38,662 nt of DNA from a virus (Duplodnaviria > Heunggongvirae > Uroviricota > Caudoviricetes). The notes under the pieces are model-generated. The model did not search any database, was not told where the DNA came from, and saw only the letters and a program-made list of their open reading frames with translations. The position numbers and the translations under genes were made by a program. Location of the stretch: positions 1 through 38,662 of the IMG/VR virus record IMGVR_UViG_3300042524_000214; one strand, given 5' to 3'. Shown here in pieces: positions 10,118-23,411 of this stretch (the first letter of the stretch is position 1; each line of letters opens with the position of its first letter).

Positions 10118-10552
10118 TTAAGGTGTTGTGTTATCTAATAAGTATCCTAGCAATTCTCCTAATGTAGAGAAAGTTCCTCCACATGGGTTATCTGGCAATG
10201 TTAAACCACAGTTTGTAATATCCATATCGCATATTGCTGTTGTCTCTAAGGTATTTACCCTATCTTTTAAATCACAAATTTCTTGTTCTAATTGTAGGAT
10301 AACATTTTTTATTATTAAACCTTGTCTACTTGGTGGGTAGTCTATGGTAGGACAATTACCCAATGCCGACATATCTATTTCAGATAAGATTTCTGCTAAG
10401 ATATTATACTGGTCTTCAGTAGTTTCCTCTAAAGTAATACAATCTTCTCCTACTAAACTAGAAAAATCTGGAACTTCTAATTCGTAGTATACGCATGTAG
10501 CATAGTTTTTTTCAGCACATGTATGTTTTATTTTATTCCCACAGTTTTTCAT
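10118..10552 (-). CDS. Cys-rich tail-associated protein
   Basis: 144 aa, 9 Cys, CVYY motif related to the fibre N-terminal module, short coiled coil. Confidence 0.55.
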   Translation of the reverse strand: MKNCGNKIKHTCAEKNYATCVYYELEVPDFSSLVGEDCITLEETTEDQYNILAEILSEIDMSALGNCPTIDYPPSRQGLIIKNVILQLEQEICDLKDRVNTLETTAICDMDITNCGLTLPDNPCGGTFSTLGELLGYLLDNTTP

Positions 10553-10692
10553 CCTTGCCCTTTGTTTAGTTTTTTGTAATTTTTTGAAGTTTTTAGTTTT
10601 GAAGTCTTGCTCTTAGCATGAATTCCTGGTCTTTTTCTTTTAGACTTTTCTCTAAAAGTTTCTGAACTAATGTTTTTATTCTTTGCTGCCAC
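10549..10692 (-). CDS. Unannotated 47-aa highly basic peptide
   Basis: GTG start after an A-rich leader. MAAKNKNISSETFREKSKRKRPGIHAKSKTSKLKTSKNYKKLNKGQG (16 K/R, 2 E). Its TGA overlaps the next ATG (ATGA coupling at 10549-10552). Confidence 0.7.
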   Translation of the reverse strand: MAAKNKNISSETFREKSKRKRPGIHAKSKTSKLKTSKNYKKLNKGQG

Positions 10693-10724
10693 TTTTTTAT
10701 ATTTTATGTTGTTAAAAATTAAAG

Positions 10725-11420
10725 GAGAGAAGAGCCCTTTATGCTATAAAAGACTCTTAGTATCTATTGGTACTAACTATAGTAAGATATACCAATCCTG
10801 TGTCTCTCTCTTTCGGAAATAAAATTCAGAACTTATTTTAAACACCCTTACGAATGCCGGAGTAATTTATCTCTAAACTACTTCACTTTCTAGACTGCTC
10901 CATCACCAAGTTTCTACGATTAGGTTATTAGCCCGAAGACCCCTATTAACCAGAGTCCCCTCGTTTCCACTCGTTAGTTTATGGCATGCACCCATTTCAG
11001 AACTGCTAAACTAGTAAGAAATCTTAAATCATTCTTCTATTTCCAGAAAACCAAACTAGTCAAAAAAGATATTCAACCTTACAAAATAACTCAAAGAGTT
11101 ATTAATTAATCTGTAACTCAACTTGCTCACAAAGGGGCAAGCCCCGATGCGAGTTCAAATTACATGGGCGAACCCACGCAACTATCAAACATATTTCACT
11201 GTCCTTTTTTAAGTTGCTGCCTCCCGTCCTGTCAAGGATAGAGAAACAATTAAAGCGTAAAGCCTACAACTTCATTTTTTAACTATCTACAAATAAGCCT
11301 GACTAAGCAGTCCTGCGACCTCACGTGCCGCTTACCTCGAAACCGAGAGTTTTGCACCTTTCGGTAACAAATGTTTAGTAGCAAATAGGTGGTTTACCCT
11401 CCCTATCAGTTCTAGTCTTC
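10725..11420 (-). ncRNA. Candidate large structured non-coding RNA (~700 nt)
   Basis: ORF-free and visibly GC-richer than its flanks. On the minus strand only: GNRA loops (ACC-GAAA-GGT, GCGGCAC-GTGA-GGTCGC, GGCATTC-GTAA-GGGTGTT), two UUCG loops, a CUUG loop, 8-13 bp helices with G-U pairs, and a long-range pairing of 11407-11414 with 10998-11005. Confidence 0.75.
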
Positions 11421-11431
11421 TTTTAATATTT

Positions 11432-12274
11432 TTATGCTTGTTGTTCTACAACGTCTTGCCCCGGTAAAGGTCTCTTTTTATCTACTGGAAGTACCTCTAT
11501 AATTTTTTCTAATCTGCCTTTAGCAATAATTAAATTGTCTAATACTGGTTTTAAGTTTGTATAAAGTCTTTGTCTATATTCTGATACCCCTAATACCCCG
11601 GTAGTCTCATACATAGTTACTAGTTCTTTTGTTGCCTCAAGCACGCCTGATTTATTTAGCGTTTCCAATAGAAATAGTTCTCTATCTATAACTACGGACA
11701 CCCCTAAAGTTTGTTTTTTTATTGAGGATAATCTTCTAATAGCTCTTTCTGCATTTAGTATCTCCCCTTCTATTTTATCTAATCCCTCTTTTAATTTAAT
11801 AGTTGTTGCTCCAACTTCTCTTAGGTATACCTCTTCAAAAATATTTTCCTCTATGGTGATTATATCTAATGTATAACTAGAGTCTTTTTTTGGTGCTTCT
11901 GTAAAGTAGAAACTCGTAAAAATATAAGGTGTTTGTCCGTTTGCTACTCTATTTAATATAAAGTCATTTAATAATTCATTATCATCTGATATTGTAACAA
12001 ATGATGTTTTTTTTCCATCAATGACTAGAGATAATGATAGACTAAAATATACTACTTGGTCTAATAGTTCTGGTACGTCAAAACTTAATGACTTAGATAA
12101 GTTTTTTTTATTTACTTTTCCTATTTTTTTTACTAATATCTCTCCAAAATCATTCCAAACAAGTATGTCATAGTCTACTATAGAGGACATGTTGTCTAAT
12201 GCTCCCAAATTAAATTCTGGGTGCTCGTAGATATTTATGTTTAATTTTTTTGTTTTGCTGTCAGAACTAATCAT
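11432..12274 (-). CDS. Hypothetical protein (tail region)
   Basis: 280 aa. Beta-rich N-terminal half and helical/coiled-coil C-terminal half. No motif recognised. Confidence 0.6.
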   Translation of the reverse strand: MISSDSKTKKLNINIYEHPEFNLGALDNMSSIVDYDILVWNDFGEILVKKIGKVNKKNLSKSLSFDVPELLDQVVYFSLSLSLVIDGKKTSFVTISDDNELLNDFILNRVANGQTPYIFTSFYFTEAPKKDSSYTLDIITIEENIFEEVYLREVGATTIKLKEGLDKIEGEILNAERAIRRLSSIKKQTLGVSVVIDRELFLLETLNKSGVLEATKELVTMYETTGVLGVSEYRQRLYTNLKPVLDNLIIAKGRLEKIIEVLPVDKKRPLPGQDVVEQQA

Positions 12275-12275
12275 T

Positions 12276-12668
12276 TTATTTAAAGTTTTTTATTGATGTT
12301 ACTATACCGTTTTTTATTGATGCTTTACTGTTACCGAGTATAAATGTACCTGTTACTCCTCTTTGTTCCGAAACTATCCTATCTAATTCAGATATTTTTT
12401 GTTCCATTATTTCTATAATTCCTATTAAAAACTCTATAGCATCATTATGCGTAGTTGTCTTTTTAATACTTTTAAGAATCCTATCTGTATGCTTTGTTGA
12501 TGCTACTTGATTTTCTATGTCATATAGTGTTAACTCTTTGGTTTCTTTTACGGTGCCCCCCTCGGATAAAAATTTTACGTATTCTTTATAAGCTGGGTTA
12601 ATGTCCTCCATTATAAGCCTTTCTCCATCTACAGCTATTGTGCCTTGTCTATTTATAGTATATTCCAT
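12276..12668 (-). CDS. Putative tail-fibre-associated protein
   Basis: 130 aa. YKEYVKFLSEGG resembles fibre-chaperone N-termini, and GVTGTF...IKNGIVTSI resembles tail-protein C-terminal motifs. TAATG coupling to the upstream fibre gene. Confidence 0.45.
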   Translation of the reverse strand: MEYTINRQGTIAVDGERLIMEDINPAYKEYVKFLSEGGTVKETKELTLYDIENQVASTKHTDRILKSIKKTTTHNDAIEFLIGIIEIMEQKISELDRIVSEQRGVTGTFILGNSKASIKNGIVTSIKNFK

Positions 12669-14824
12669 TAGCTTGATATTGCGTTTCTTTTAGTTGCTAT
12701 ACATCCGTAATCTTTAATACTACATGCTCCTGATACAGCTGTATTGTTACCTATCCAAAGAAAAGGATAATAGCTTGCACCTGTATTGTAATCACTTGTA
12801 ATACTATAAGAAGTGCTTGTTACAACTCCTGTTGAGTTTACTATCTTAGTCAATTCAATAAAAATTACTGGTACTTGAAAAAGTTTGTATATTCTTAGTT
12901 TGTATGTGCATGTTGTATCAGTTCCTAAAAATCCTGAACCTAAGTCTATACTTGATGCTGTTCCTGTAGCATCATTCCATACAAAAAATAAATTTGGTGA
13001 ACCTTGTAATTTTGCTACTCCTATAGAGTTTATAAGAGTTGTTGGCTCTACATTAGTTGGGGCTGTCGTGTTATATAATGATGATATTCCTACGAATAAC
13101 CTTTGTGCTCCATTGTTAGTGTTTACTCTAAATTTTCTAATTATTTCAAATTGAAAGCCGACACCTAAATAGCCTGAGCCTCCAAATGGATTACCATATA
13201 AACCGGCTGCTGAACCAACTGCTGTTGCTGTTGTATATAAAACCCCCATTGGATTTTCACTTAGTGAAGTTGCTGTACCAAAACTTGTCAATGTTCCACC
13301 AACTCTTAATGTATCATAAAATGTAATACTATCCATTGGTAAGAAGTAAGCAAACTGGTTTGTCATAAACTTGTCGTACAAAAATGTACTGTCGTTTGCT
13401 GGAGTATATCCTAACCATGCAGCTATTGTCTTGTTTACCCAAAGTGTTCCATTAAATCCTAATACATCTCCATTTACTGGGATTGTAGTCTTTAAGTCCA
13501 CATTATGTAGCTCTTCTATCTCAAATCCGTTTTGTACCTTAACAAAAATTTCTCCATTACCGGCACTAACTTTTGTTACTATTCCTATGAATACTAGATG
13601 AGCCGGTGCGTAAGGTTTCCCTACTAATCCATAGATTAACGCTCCATTTACCCCTAACCATACTGGGTCTCCTGCTGTTTGTCCTGCTGTATTTAATCCT
13701 CCTAAAAGACCTTCAGTAACTACAAATCCTGTTTGTGTTCCACCGGTAGTTGTAATATCGGATTGCATCAATCCTATAGTCTTACTTGAGGTGGCTTCAG
13801 AAGTGTTGCTCGCTGCTCTTACAAGTATGTTGGTTCCATTTGCTCCTGTAGAATATACTGGAGTACCTTTTGTTATTAAGGCAGTTCCGTCATTTTTTAC
13901 AATGTGTTTTACTACAGAAGTCCAATCAGCATAATTTTCTTGCCAAGTAGCGTTATAATCTGTAGCATCTACTTTTGTAAGTATCTGTCCTGCTGTACCT
14001 CCTGGTGGTAATGTTCCAACAGTTAATGGTGCTAAATCTGCAAAGGTTACGTAGTTACTTACACCATTACCATTATTTATAAATGAGGATGTGCTTGTAG
14101 GTCTATTCCTTAAAAAGGATGAACCTGATGTAGCTGCCCAATCTGTTTGTTCTTGGTCTATTAAATTTCCTACTCCTAAATCTGTCCAGTATAAATTTCC
14201 ACCTATTGCTGGTGTAATACTGTCGTTATTAAAATTAGCTCGAAATATATGACCAGAATAGTAAACTAATGTTCCTGCTAAATATGGATTACCTGTTGCT
14301 GCTATGTGGTTTGTTGTCCACTCTGTTGCTGCTAATGCCGATGGTGGTATGGATGCTGCTGTTATATAACCTGCATCATTAACCAATTCTGAAATATTAT
14401 CTCCTGGCTGTATTGCACTATTAATTAGTGCTTGTAATGTTCCAGAAATTTGTAACTCTAAAGCTGAAGATGTACTTACTATATCTATAGACCCATCTGG
14501 GCTAGTTATAGGCTTTACAAAGAGCTTTCCGTCACTCGTGGCTATCTCTAATAGATTTCCTAATTCGGAGCTCTTAAAAGTGCTTATATCAATTATTGGG
14601 TTTACTGGACTTCCTGTTACCCCTGTTCCGGTTACTGATTGTACAGTTCCTGTTCCTCCTCCACCGCCCCCGGTTAAATCCACTAAAGGATAAGGAAAAC
14701 CGTTTTGGTCTGTTATATATGTTTTAACAGTACTTTGAGAAGTTGCTTTTACATAATACACAGAGTTTGGTCTGGGTAATGTAGGTAGGCTTTTTACTTT
14801 ATAGTGTTTTACTTCTTCTTGCAT
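12668..14824 (-). CDS. Tail fibre protein
   Basis: 718 aa, G/T/A-rich, with a Gly linker (TGGGGGGTG). Modular segments (ISELVNDAGYIT; KGTPVY...GLLGGLNT...KPYAPAHLVFIG...NGEIFVKVQNG) are common in aquatic phage fibres. Confidence 0.75.
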   Translation of the reverse strand: MQEEVKHYKVKSLPTLPRPNSVYYVKATSQSTVKTYITDQNGFPYPLVDLTGGGGGGTGTVQSVTGTGVTGSPVNPIIDISTFKSSELGNLLEIATSDGKLFVKPITSPDGSIDIVSTSSALELQISGTLQALINSAIQPGDNISELVNDAGYITAASIPPSALAATEWTTNHIAATGNPYLAGTLVYYSGHIFRANFNNDSITPAIGGNLYWTDLGVGNLIDQEQTDWAATSGSSFLRNRPTSTSSFINNGNGVSNYVTFADLAPLTVGTLPPGGTAGQILTKVDATDYNATWQENYADWTSVVKHIVKNDGTALITKGTPVYSTGANGTNILVRAASNTSEATSSKTIGLMQSDITTTGGTQTGFVVTEGLLGGLNTAGQTAGDPVWLGVNGALIYGLVGKPYAPAHLVFIGIVTKVSAGNGEIFVKVQNGFEIEELHNVDLKTTIPVNGDVLGFNGTLWVNKTIAAWLGYTPANDSTFLYDKFMTNQFAYFLPMDSITFYDTLRVGGTLTSFGTATSLSENPMGVLYTTATAVGSAAGLYGNPFGGSGYLGVGFQFEIIRKFRVNTNNGAQRLFVGISSLYNTTAPTNVEPTTLINSIGVAKLQGSPNLFFVWNDATGTASSIDLGSGFLGTDTTCTYKLRIYKLFQVPVIFIELTKIVNSTGVVTSTSYSITSDYNTGASYYPFLWIGNNTAVSGACSIKDYGCIATKRNAISS

Positions 14825-21716: not shown

Positions 21717-23411
21717 TTAGTTAAAGCCTTTTCTTGCTGCTTCGTCTAATTCAATCATAACGAAACGAGTTAAGTCTCTAACGTGAATATCACAAATGTT
21801 GAACGCCCAGAACTCTTGTCCTATTTGTTTCATTGATGACATTACATCTCCTGCTTTTCTATAGTCGTAACGACCATTAGTAGTTCCCCAGTAGCACATT
21901 TCGCCTTGTGGTTTTACTAAATAAATGTTAGCTCCCATATTTCCTCCGTCAACCAAAGTAGCACCTTTTGGTAACTGTTTGTTGTTAGAGTATTGTTGGT
22001 CATCCACATCCCAAATTACCATTGAGTAAGCAGTTGGTGACAAGTTTTCTGGGTGGAAACCACCTGCTAAACGGTCAACTCCTTCCATCATGTTCAATGA
22101 TGTGTCTTCTTCAATTTCGATGTTTCCAATACCAGGAATGAAAACTTTTGTAAAACGAATTGGCACGTATTCCAAATTGAATGGGTCGTTACCACGAACT
22201 GGGTTAGGTATAGTTCTTTCAACTCCTAAGAATGTATTCAATGCAGAATTTTGTGCATTTACTTCATCAGAGAAGATTGACAAGATATTTTGATAAGCGT
22301 ATTTACCACATTTGAATTTCAAACGTCTTTCAACATCTTGTTTGAATGGGTTAATACGGAATACGTATTCAGCTGATTCTTTCAAGTGGTCACGAGTAAT
22401 TCCTCCTGGACGACCATACTTAATAAGTTTACCTCTACGTAATTGGTGCCATAAACCTTCGTTTAATCTAGCAACACCGTTTGAATCACGAACTGTAGCA
22501 GCACGTTGGAACAAAAGTTTTTGAGCAGTTAAACGCTCTAATTCTCTCATTGTTAAGAATTCCATTGTAGCTCCAATTCTAGCTGTTTTCAAGTCTGGCA
22601 TTTTTTTACCGTTCTTAACAGTCATGTTAGCTAAAATAGCATATTCATTCCCTTCAAATTCCGATTGTAATTTGTCTAAATACATTTTAGATTGAGCATC
22701 AGCACCAGAGAAAGATTTAGAATCCGCCAAACCAGTGATGTAAGCTTCAACCCCAGATGCAGAACCTAAACGGAATTCACATCTCATTGAACCTACTGTA
22801 TCAGGCATATCAAAGTGAGAGAAGTTTGTACCTCTTTCTCCTAAGATTGCATGACCTACTTTGAAGTATTGGATACCTTTAGCTAAGTTAGAAGGTAAGA
22901 ACCAAGTGTTCTTGTCATTATCTGCTAATTTAACTGTGTGTTCCCAACCTTCTCCTACTGCAACTACAGGTACTTCACCAGAAACGATTACTTGTTGTCC
23001 GTAGTATTTGTTGTTTGTTAATACATCTCCGGTAGTGTAAGCTTTGTTCAAAGTAATTTTGAATGCTCCACCATCTACTCCAGGGTAAGCCTGGTTAGAC
23101 ATATCACGAGTTGTGTAACAACCTTTGTACTCTTCAACTGGAATATCATAAGTAAATCCACCGTCCCATCCGTTAACTTCAAGGATTGATTTGTTTTGTA
23201 ATAATTCACGAAGAATACCGTAGCTTCTTACTGCTTGTTTACCCCATAAGTTCATCAAACCTAAGTGGTGTTTGTTTGGGTCTTCTTTATACCATGAATA
23301 AAGTGAAGGTAAATCTTGTGCACCGTTGATAGAAGAAACTGTCTTCTTATCGGTAAACATTATTACTTGGTCTCCATTCACAATGAAAGGGATGTTTTGT
23401 TGTTGTACCAT
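21717..23411 (-). CDS. Major capsid protein (crAss-like, HK97 fold)
   Basis: 564 aa. Position after portal and scaffold-like gene, strongly biased high-expression codon usage, and motifs NEGLWHQLRRG, FTKVFIPGIGNIEIEED and DLTRFVMIEL. Confidence 0.88.
   Translation of the reverse strand: MVQQQNIPFIVNGDQVIMFTDKKTVSSINGAQDLPSLYSWYKEDPNKHHLGLMNLWGKQAVRSYGILRELLQNKSILEVNGWDGGFTYDIPVEEYKGCYTTRDMSNQAYPGVDGGAFKITLNKAYTTGDVLTNNKYYGQQVIVSGEVPVVAVGEGWEHTVKLADNDKNTWFLPSNLAKGIQYFKVGHAILGERGTNFSHFDMPDTVGSMRCEFRLGSASGVEAYITGLADSKSFSGADAQSKMYLDKLQSEFEGNEYAILANMTVKNGKKMPDLKTARIGATMEFLTMRELERLTAQKLLFQRAATVRDSNGVARLNEGLWHQLRRGKLIKYGRPGGITRDHLKESAEYVFRINPFKQDVERRLKFKCGKYAYQNILSIFSDEVNAQNSALNTFLGVERTIPNPVRGNDPFNLEYVPIRFTKVFIPGIGNIEIEEDTSLNMMEGVDRLAGGFHPENLSPTAYSMVIWDVDDQQYSNNKQLPKGATLVDGGNMGANIYLVKPQGEMCYWGTTNGRYDYRKAGDVMSSMKQIGQEFWAFNICDIHVRDLTRFVMIELDEAARKGFN

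Follow-up and report, generated by a model that had tools for sequence, protein, structure and literature searches.

Known large RNAs and the new RNA

To our knowledge, very few natural RNAs of bacteria and phages exceed 500 nt and have complex conserved folds, among them ribosomal RNA, RNase P, introns, OLE, GOLLD and ROOL. Cryo-electron microscopy (cryo-EM) has shown that OLE, GOLLD and ROOL form unexpected RNA-only assemblies; in GOLLD conservation is greater in the 3′ part than in the 5′ part, and the periphery is variable (10.1101/2024.12.08.627333). OLE works as a ribonucleoprotein (RNP) that includes the small basic protein bS21 (PMC12054373). Here we describe a ~700-nt RNA that is encoded at 10721–11421, minus strand, of a 38,662-nt stretch of tailed-phage DNA (the window). 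This window makes up the first 38.7 kb of a 131,453-bp IMG/VR virus record (IMGVR_UViG_3300042524_000214, estimated completeness 91%). Its minus-strand letters fold better than shuffled ones, its helices covary among homologues, and it follows one protein gene at each homologous locus with DNA obtained; it is almost certainly a real, functional structured RNA.

Searches with Rfam 15, which includes GOLLD, ROOL, OLE, group I and II introns, RNase P, tmRNA and pRNA, gave no match at gathering score in the window, at E ≤10 in 10400–11600, or at E ≤1 in five homologous loci (L017, L018, L020, L024 and L026). A literature search found no description of this RNA either, and the family is very probably absent from Rfam so far. 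An earlier note on this DNA, which had put forward a ‘GOLLD/ROOL-like or new’ non-coding RNA (ncRNA), pointed to a likeness to GOLLD and proposed an Rfam search, was right as to a new rather than a known family; kinship with GOLLD or ROOL and the likeness to GOLLD were not borne out by the Rfam searches, which gave no family match.

Resemblances to described families are nevertheless of several sorts. Like GOLLD (RF01998), the RNA is phage-encoded, very large and many-helixed, with a better conserved 3′ part and a variable periphery. However, neither the window nor the five homologues match the RF01998 covariance model, and GOLLD is often longer than 800 nt. GOLLD is usually located by transfer RNA (tRNA) genes, a typical rather than strictly defining trait, whereas the present RNA lies in a tail-gene block and is tied to one protein gene. 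The tRNA genes of this phage are situated at 41.1 kb and 71.4–72.1 kb and the RNA at 10.7–11.4 kb, so that the nearest tRNA gene is ~30 kb off. ROOL (RF03087) is likewise an ornate RNA, found in phages and prophages and several hundred bases in length, for which no protein partner is known; its model did not match, and its secondary structure and genomic setting are both unlike those found here. OLE (RF01071, with Oap proteins) is a large (~600 nt) ornate RNA co-inherited with a neighbouring protein gene, but it is a cellular RNA of Bacillota, not of phages; its model gave no match, and the neighbours here belong to no Pfam family and share none with OapA, OapB or OapC. The pRNA of phage phi29 (RF00044), ~170 nt long, is a precedent among virion functions as a phage structural RNA in virion assembly; it is encoded at the genome end and acts on the packaging motor, and its model found nothing here. 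Group I and II introns are comparable in size, are likewise closed by long-range helices and also have GNRA loops and peripheral domains of a modular kind, but the present RNA is intergenic between intact genes, with no intron model match and no intron-encoded protein. The RNA thus resembles GOLLD, ROOL and OLE in general type without being related to any of them, and it has a narrow distribution and a new genomic setting.

The family adds another large ornate RNA, one with a secondary structure already well constrained by covariation. Position in a tail-gene block and strict linkage to one protein gene are new for such RNAs, and both are handles on function. The size and the many GNRA loops make the RNA a good target for cryo-EM.

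A gene-free stretch with a strand-specific fold

All genes at 2 to 32,770 of the window are on the minus strand. The RNA is flanked by a gene for a 280-aa protein (11432–12274) and a gene for a 47-aa protein (10549–10692); downstream of the latter are homologues of structural genes of Cellulophaga phage phi17:2. The major capsid protein (21717–23411) is closest to those of Cellulophaga phages phi17:2 and phi4:1, genus Lightbulbvirus (47% identity). Location in the tail-gene region of a phage, as first proposed, is supported; the ‘crAss-like’ label given to the phage is not, the capsid protein being closest to those of the Lightbulbvirus phages.

Segment 10553–11431 is the longest stretch of the window without an open reading frame (ORF) of ≥75 aa. 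Its GC content is 0.36–0.40 against 0.26–0.33 in the flanks, so that the ORF scan and GC content agree with the earlier description of a gene-free, GC-richer gap in the virion/tail-gene block. Since TAA, TAG and TGA are each present in all six frames of the region, no alternative genetic code opens a frame, and this explanation of the gap was ruled out.

The minimum free energy (MFE) of the minus strand of the region is −197 to −201 kcal/mol, with z scores of −3.7 to −3.8 against dinucleotide shuffles. The plus strand has z −1.2, and eight control coding windows of equal length on the same strand have z from −1.5 to +0.8. The comparison with shuffles, which had been suggested as a check, therefore gave an excess of folding specific to the minus strand (−3.8 versus −1.2).

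Coding signals were absent. Substitutions among homologues are distributed evenly over the three codon phases (e.g. 51/55/49), and indel lengths in the homologous region are mostly not multiples of three. No ORF is common to the members; the longest stop-free stretches vary in frame and strand between homologues. A frameshifted conserved ORF in relatives was looked for as well and none was found, in agreement with the non-coding status claimed from the window. Compensatory pairs above controls (described below) and lack of coding signal, the generic marks of a structured ncRNA, were thus both found.

Secondary structure supported by covariation

The layout was derived from four alignments (A1–A4), RNAalifold, single-sequence folds and hand inspection. 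The comparison set comprised seven full-length sequences representing six lineages (two sequences are nearly identical), plus partial ones. Comparison of the aligned letters divides the fold into a 5′ half, with P1 as its closing helix, a 3′ core, with P4 in this role, and a 3′ three-way junction. The 5′ half consists of one hairpin, a five-way junction (P2) and nested long-range helices, P5 around P3. The elements are as follows.

10721–11421 (−): complete structured RNA of 701 nt, starting with P1 and ending with P7; no ORF, z −3.8, homologous gaps in relatives
11411–11421 (AGAAGACTAGA) with 11045–11055 (TTTGGTTTTCT) (−): P1, closing helix of the 377-nt 5′ half, with 97% of cells paired over 11 pairs
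11384–11407 (−): hairpin H1, GATAGG/CCTATT plus a 2-bp tip; 6+2 pairs, 100% paired, two pairs with double changes
11374–11381 with 11287–11293 (−): P2, CTAC-T-AAA/TTT-GTAG; domain 11287–11381, encloses H2, H3, H4 and H5
11351–11371 (−): H2, GAAA loop, within P2
11335–11348 (−): H3, within P2
11315–11331 (−): H4, GTGA loop, within P2
11299–11310 (−): H5, within P2
11275–11285 (TAGTTAAAAAA) with 11057–11067 (TTTTTTGACTA) (−): P5, 5′ strand in an invariant block, encloses P3; 11 pairs, 98.7% paired
11256–11264 with 11075–11083 (−): P3, GGCTTTACG/TGTAAGGTT; domain 11075–11264; nine pairs, five with double changes
11221–11243 (−): H6, within P3
11126–11220 (−): lineage-specific insert with three hairpins, within P3
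11085–11103 (−): H8, AATAACTC/GAGTTATT, within P3
11035–11044 with 10815–10824 (−): P4, GGAAATAGAA/TTTTATTTCC, 10 bp; closes the 3′ core (10815–11044) directly after P1
11026–11030 with 10830–10834 (−): P4b, inside P4
11007–11018 with 10887–10897 (−): P6, inside P4
10988–11006 (−): hairpin Ha, inside P4
10938–10957 (−): hairpin Hb, inside P4
10920–10937 (−): hairpin Hc, inside P4
10862–10881 (−): hairpin Hd, GAGA loop, inside P4
10841–10858 (−): hairpin He, GTAA loop, inside P4
10721–10813 (−): 3′ three-way junction of P7, P8 and P9, the most conserved part (92% mean column identity)
10803–10813 with 10721–10730 (−): P7, closes the three-way junction
10766–10796 (−): P8, in the three-way junction
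10731–10757 (−): P9, one-sided changes all A-U to G-U

About 150 base pairs are supported overall, and 54 pairs have compensatory double changes across three counts. In the 5′ domain 96.3% of cells are paired and 15 of 39 pairs are double-changed, while slid partners give 39–46%. For the long-range helices and the 3′ junction, 514 of 528 cells (97.3%) are paired, with 18 of 76 pairs double-changed (slid controls 45–58%); in the 3′ core the figures are 90.7% and 21 of 51 (slid controls 35–54%). None of 500 shuffles was as high for either the 5′ domain or the 3′ core, a control that overstates significance because the sequences are mutually related. One-sided changes are from A-U to G-U, a pairing possible on the minus strand only. 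Folding z scores and covariation together support the large multi-helix structured RNA that had been proposed for this strand.

The long-range helices vary between lineages. P1 carries two A-to-G changes in the window and still pairs, as G-U; L020 has AGGTAG:CTACCT instead. RNAalifold initially assigned another partner to the 5′ end (AACT with AGTT of GAAGTTGTAG); this pairing was dropped for the one with 11045–11055, which is longer, tolerates the A-to-G changes of the window as G-U and covaries in L020 and L055. The 3′ strand of P1 directly abuts the 5′ strand of P4. P2 covaries among homologues as GG:CC, AA:TT or GA:TC. In P5, the 5′ strand of L020 is shorter by one A and the 3′ strand by one T, a matched indel, and L016 and L026 have G-U changes. 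The layout of the P3 domain was the same in single-sequence folds of six lineages. Conservation is highest in the strands that form the hub around P1, P5, P3 and P4, and in the three-way junction, whose value (92%) is above that of the flanking protein genes.

Around the fixed closing helices the periphery is modular, with hairpins gained and lost between lineages. P2 encloses four hairpins in most members, a single GTGA hairpin in L020 and a bare TTCG loop in L017. Inside P3, an extra 130-nt insert of three hairpins is present in the window, L016 and L024 only; the variable element is a short hairpin in L017, L018 and L020, and L026 has H8 alone. In the window H2, H4, Hd and He end in GNRA loops; the tip loop of H1, which is TAAA in the window, is GNRA in homologues. 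At the position of Ha, L018 and L019 have a direct duplication (GGCAGGCATGAAAT twice) and no hairpin, unlike all other members; this is not an assembly error because the identical sequence was obtained from two independent samples.

Most of the helices that the earlier note had read from the window proved to be conserved. H1 (ATAGG/CCTAT), H2 (ACC-GAAA-GGT), H3 (CTCG/CGAG), the GTGA-capped H4, H6 (TCCT/AGGA), H8 and He (GGCATTC-GTAA-GGGTGTT) are kept in homologues, many with compensatory changes, and P8 (ATTGGTA/TACCAAT) and the 13-bp hairpin P9 are retained too. Three others (GCAACT/AGTTGC, GTGGG/CCCAT and GGGG-CTTG-CCCC) do pair in the window, L016 and L024 but are confined to these, as parts of the 130-nt insert. 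An 8-bp long-range helix, TAGAACTG/CAGTTCTG, was thought to close a ~400-nt domain; it is present in the letters and unsupported by the comparison, which yields other long-range helices (P1, P5, P3 and P4) instead. Its 5′ arm belongs to P1, with partner 11045–11055, and its 3′ arm is the 5′ strand of the covarying hairpin Ha, where homologues read CACTCCTG, CAGGCATG or CGATGCTG. The supposed ACTAGT/ACTAGT closure also comes apart: the first copy is in P5 and the second pairs with CTAG of AGTCTAGA (P6). Instead of GGTTA..TAACC all homologues have hairpin Hb (GACTCT/AGGGGTC), and instead of GACT/AGTC they use the CTGC/GCAG register.

A terminator scan called the P9 hairpin (10731–10757) in the window. 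The bases after this hairpin pair back as P7 in all members, and the U run reads TTTGAC in L017 and L018; enclosed by P7 and without a conserved U run, P9 is probably not a plain terminator.

Homologues and distribution

For the 280-aa protein we found nine homologue clusters with 54–95% identity. Every contig with DNA obtained has a homologous gene-free stretch after the 280-aa gene (L016, L017, L018=L019, L020, L021, L022–L025 and L026). At least six further lineages, located via the upstream 280-aa gene, thus carry the RNA. Nucleotide identity to the window RNA is 98% in L016 and 78–82%, where alignable, in the other homologues; the RNA length is ~700 nt in the window and 520–740 nt in close relatives. 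Contigs reaching far enough continue with a small ORF with GTG start and then a gene for a 144-aa protein. The final 18 bases of the L022 Logan contig are GATCGGAAGAGCGTCGTG, which looks like an Illumina adapter and would then have been left untrimmed at the contig end.

Other relatives lack the RNA. Phage phi17:2 has no gap at the syntenic site. Twelve IMG/VR relatives, identified through the 144-aa gene (~60% protein identity), leave no more than ~165 nt in front of it and show no similarity to the region in their whole records; the genes upstream of the RNA (for 718, 130 and 280 aa) were not found in these 12 either, and therefore the RNA belongs to a variable cassette. In several RNA-less relatives the small basic ORF, with ATG start, directly follows an unrelated upstream gene.

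Blastn of the region against 50,697 phage records gave no match, exact-pattern scans of IMG/VR, JGI metagenomes and GTDB genomes with the conserved blocks gave chance matches only, and the 280-aa protein, as single query or profile, found no IMG/VR locus.

Probable and possible deep relatives

A profile search of 1.84 billion representative proteins was made for distant relatives of the 280-aa protein. Those found (24–30% identity) have the N-terminal beta-sandwich in common with it, along with a motif in the C-terminal part around SEYRQ..YT.LK...DNL...KGRLE.I. At both loci retrieved for such relatives, L055 and L056, a gene-free and strongly structured stretch follows the 280-aa homologue: 3272–4039 of L055 (768 nt, z −6.5) and 1059–1655 of L056 (z −2.7).

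The unaided MFE fold of L055 reproduces the main-family layout with every long-range helix rewritten. P1 has 10 bp with span 246 (AGAGTCTGAG:CTTAGACTCT), and P4, with 10 bp and span 271, comes immediately after it, with GGCTTA:TAAGCC as P4b. P5 has 11 bp (TAGTTTTTT:AGAAAACTA), its A:T run flipped to T:A, and the three-way junction has a fully rewritten 10-bp P7 and a 12-bp P9. The hairpin at the Ha position agrees with that of L024 in 16 of 17 letters. L055 is a probable deep relative of the main RNA family, and L056 a possible one with the junction in common. Position and layout are the grounds for this kinship, because a covariance model of the 3′ junction (R1) gave nothing above noise: it matched L055 exactly at the junction with 9.7 bits (E 5.5).

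Downstream of the L055 RNA are a gene for a 54-aa acidic protein and then a 502-aa gene, unlike in the window. Since the genes after the RNA differ, its constant neighbour is the upstream 280-aa gene; the RNA follows this protein family at every locus with DNA obtained, from 95% down to 24% protein identity. Linkage on the upstream side down to 24–30% identity, together with changing downstream genes, argues against a leader specific to the small basic gene.

Neighbouring genes

The two genes next to the RNA are:

11432–12274 (−): 280-aa gene, precedes the RNA; isoelectric point (pI) 5.1, predicted N-terminal beta-sandwich and C-terminal long helices, conserved basic C-terminal motif
10549–10692 (−): 47-aa gene, GTG start, 28 nt after the RNA; pI 11, 16 lysines and arginines, conserved in relatives whether or not they carry the RNA

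The structure model of the 280-aa protein (a low-confidence one, with predicted local distance difference test score, pLDDT, of 59) gave no fold match at E ≤0.001, and a protein atlas gave no usable lead. With its beta-sandwich and long helices, and without an RNA-binding fold, the modelled protein resembles fibre or adaptor proteins of phages.

The three genes before the RNA (12668–14824, 12276–12668 and 11432–12274, all minus strand; 718, 130 and 280 aa) form a cassette that is replaced by unrelated genes in close relatives. For the 718-aa product there are weak atlas pointers to tail-fibre and Mtd_N-like proteins (scores <0.9, a lead only). The cassette looks like a swappable receptor-binding module.

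The 47-aa protein has no Pfam or PHROG family; from its pI of 11 it would be a typical nucleic-acid binder. Its gene starts with GTG at all RNA-bearing loci of the main family and with ATG at RNA-less ones, and its stop codon overlaps the start of the next gene, the 144-aa structural gene (ATGA). It was not found after the L055 RNA and occurs in phages without the RNA.

An imperfect A-rich 12-nt direct repeat brackets the RNA: AAATATTAAAAG at 11420–11431 and AAATATAAAAAAG before the GTG at 10693–10706 (both minus strand). Similar A-rich repeat pairs are present in homologues. The repeat could be an insertion trace or the usual A-rich start context of phage genes.

Possible role of the RNA

Size, an invariant hub, many GNRA loops and a modular periphery are hallmarks of ribozymes, RNP scaffolds and the GOLLD/ROOL cages, and for this reason we infer that the RNA works via its three-dimensional fold, neither coding nor serving as a simple switch for the next gene. 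A folded RNA that acts on its own or within an RNP is more probable than one with an exclusively cis role. We lean towards a late-expressed, fold-dependent architectural RNA of a new family, co-inherited with the last gene (280 aa) of the tail-fibre cassette. Such an RNA would be transcribed on the minus strand along with the tail genes and inherited as a block with that gene; its most likely role would be that of a stable architectural RNA, made late and broadly comparable to GOLLD and ROOL, that associates with itself or serves as a scaffold, and either the 280-aa or the basic 47-aa protein may be its partner. The linkage to the 280-aa gene suggests a common function or complex.

Several points weigh against this view. 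The phage is known from metagenomes only, and the family is small and narrow (seven full-length sequences from six lineages). The sequences are mutually related, and the shuffle controls are therefore generous. The L020 strand of P1 was aligned by hand. Kinship with L055 and L056, itself an inference, lacks statistical support: nhmmer and blastn found no significant similarity of these loci to the main family, and the R1 match is noise. No promoter or terminator of its own was identified for the RNA, and the distance of 28 nt from its end to the GTG start would permit a cis role. An RNP with the 280-aa protein is only a guess, because the protein is acidic and has no recognisable RNA-binding fold.

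An alternative to the architectural RNA is a cis-acting leader or processing element in a polycistronic late mRNA, with effects on stability, processing or translation of the 47-aa and virion genes. The RNA is oriented as the operon and has no promoter of its own that we could find, it ends 28 nt before the GTG of the small gene, and this start codon is GTG with the RNA and ATG without it; moreover, the basic 47-aa protein could feed back on the RNA, as in ribosomal-protein leaders. However, the difference between GTG and ATG amounts to one event at the level of lineages, the A-rich start region takes no part in the paired structure, and the comparable RNA of L055 precedes quite different genes (54 aa, acidic, and 502 aa). 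Size and helix number count against a leader as well: 700 bases with ~25 helices far exceed any bacterial leader known to us. We regard a cis role as unlikely.

Equally unlikely, on the analogy of other RNA genes that travel with a protein gene (OLE with oapA, guide RNAs with nucleases), the RNA may be a dedicated partner of the 280-aa protein in an RNP for assembly of the tail or tail fibre or for another late function. The RNA follows this protein family at all loci with DNA, from 95% to 24% identity, relatives without the protein are also without the RNA, and the most conserved part of the protein is its basic C-terminal helix motif. Yet the protein as a whole is acidic (pI 5.1), with a fibre- or adaptor-type model and no RNA-binding fold found, and co-inheritance could reflect one recombining cassette.

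A somewhat more doubtful proposal is that of a new class of ornate RNA in the virion-building programme, be it a scaffold, an RNP assembling or arming the tail-fibre cassette, or a large ribozyme. GOLLD and ROOL sit by tRNA islands; a virion-programme RNA, if true, would be unlike both.

A divergent member of GOLLD or ROOL is highly improbable. The RNA is phage-borne, ornate, GNRA-rich and several hundred bases long, with a more conserved 3′ part (as in GOLLD, 10.1101/2024.12.08.627333), but neither RF01998, RF03087 nor any other model matched at permissive E values, and the RNA is not near tRNA genes. No better placed is a self-splicing intron or another mobile ribozyme. Size and helix density are in the group I/II range, presence among relatives is patchy and the A-rich 12-nt repeat flanks the element; nevertheless, the element is located between two complete genes, no intron model matched, the genome has no reverse transcriptase and no homing endonuclease is adjacent. 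An intron was rejected since the upstream ORF is terminated by a stop codon and the C-terminus it encodes aligns among homologues, and the small ORF is whole in RNA-less relatives. The template RNA of a diversity-generating retroelement was also rejected, with no RVT_1 match in the genome and no template/variable repeat pair between the RNA and the fibre cassette, as was a CRISPR reading, with no repeat array. A decaying gene or functionless spacer, for which one could cite the edge of a variable cassette and close relatives without the element, is refuted by covariation to the point of being negligible (>50 pairs with compensatory changes, blocks that exceed the flanking genes in conservation, and no remnant of a reading frame).

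Other features of the genome

The 131-kb genome has two further stretches without an ORF of ≥75 aa, at 47515–48360 (846 nt) and 45567–46158 (592 nt). At the start of the former is a weak match to a CRISPR-repeat model (35.5 bits, cut-off 48) with no repeat array behind it. Outside the window, tRNA genes (Arg and two Met) are clustered at ~71.4–72.1 kb of the genome (locus L053, 1954–2622). The DNA between these genes matches the permuted tmRNA family RF04321 (57.3 bits against a cut-off of 47), and ARAGORN also calls a permuted tmRNA there.

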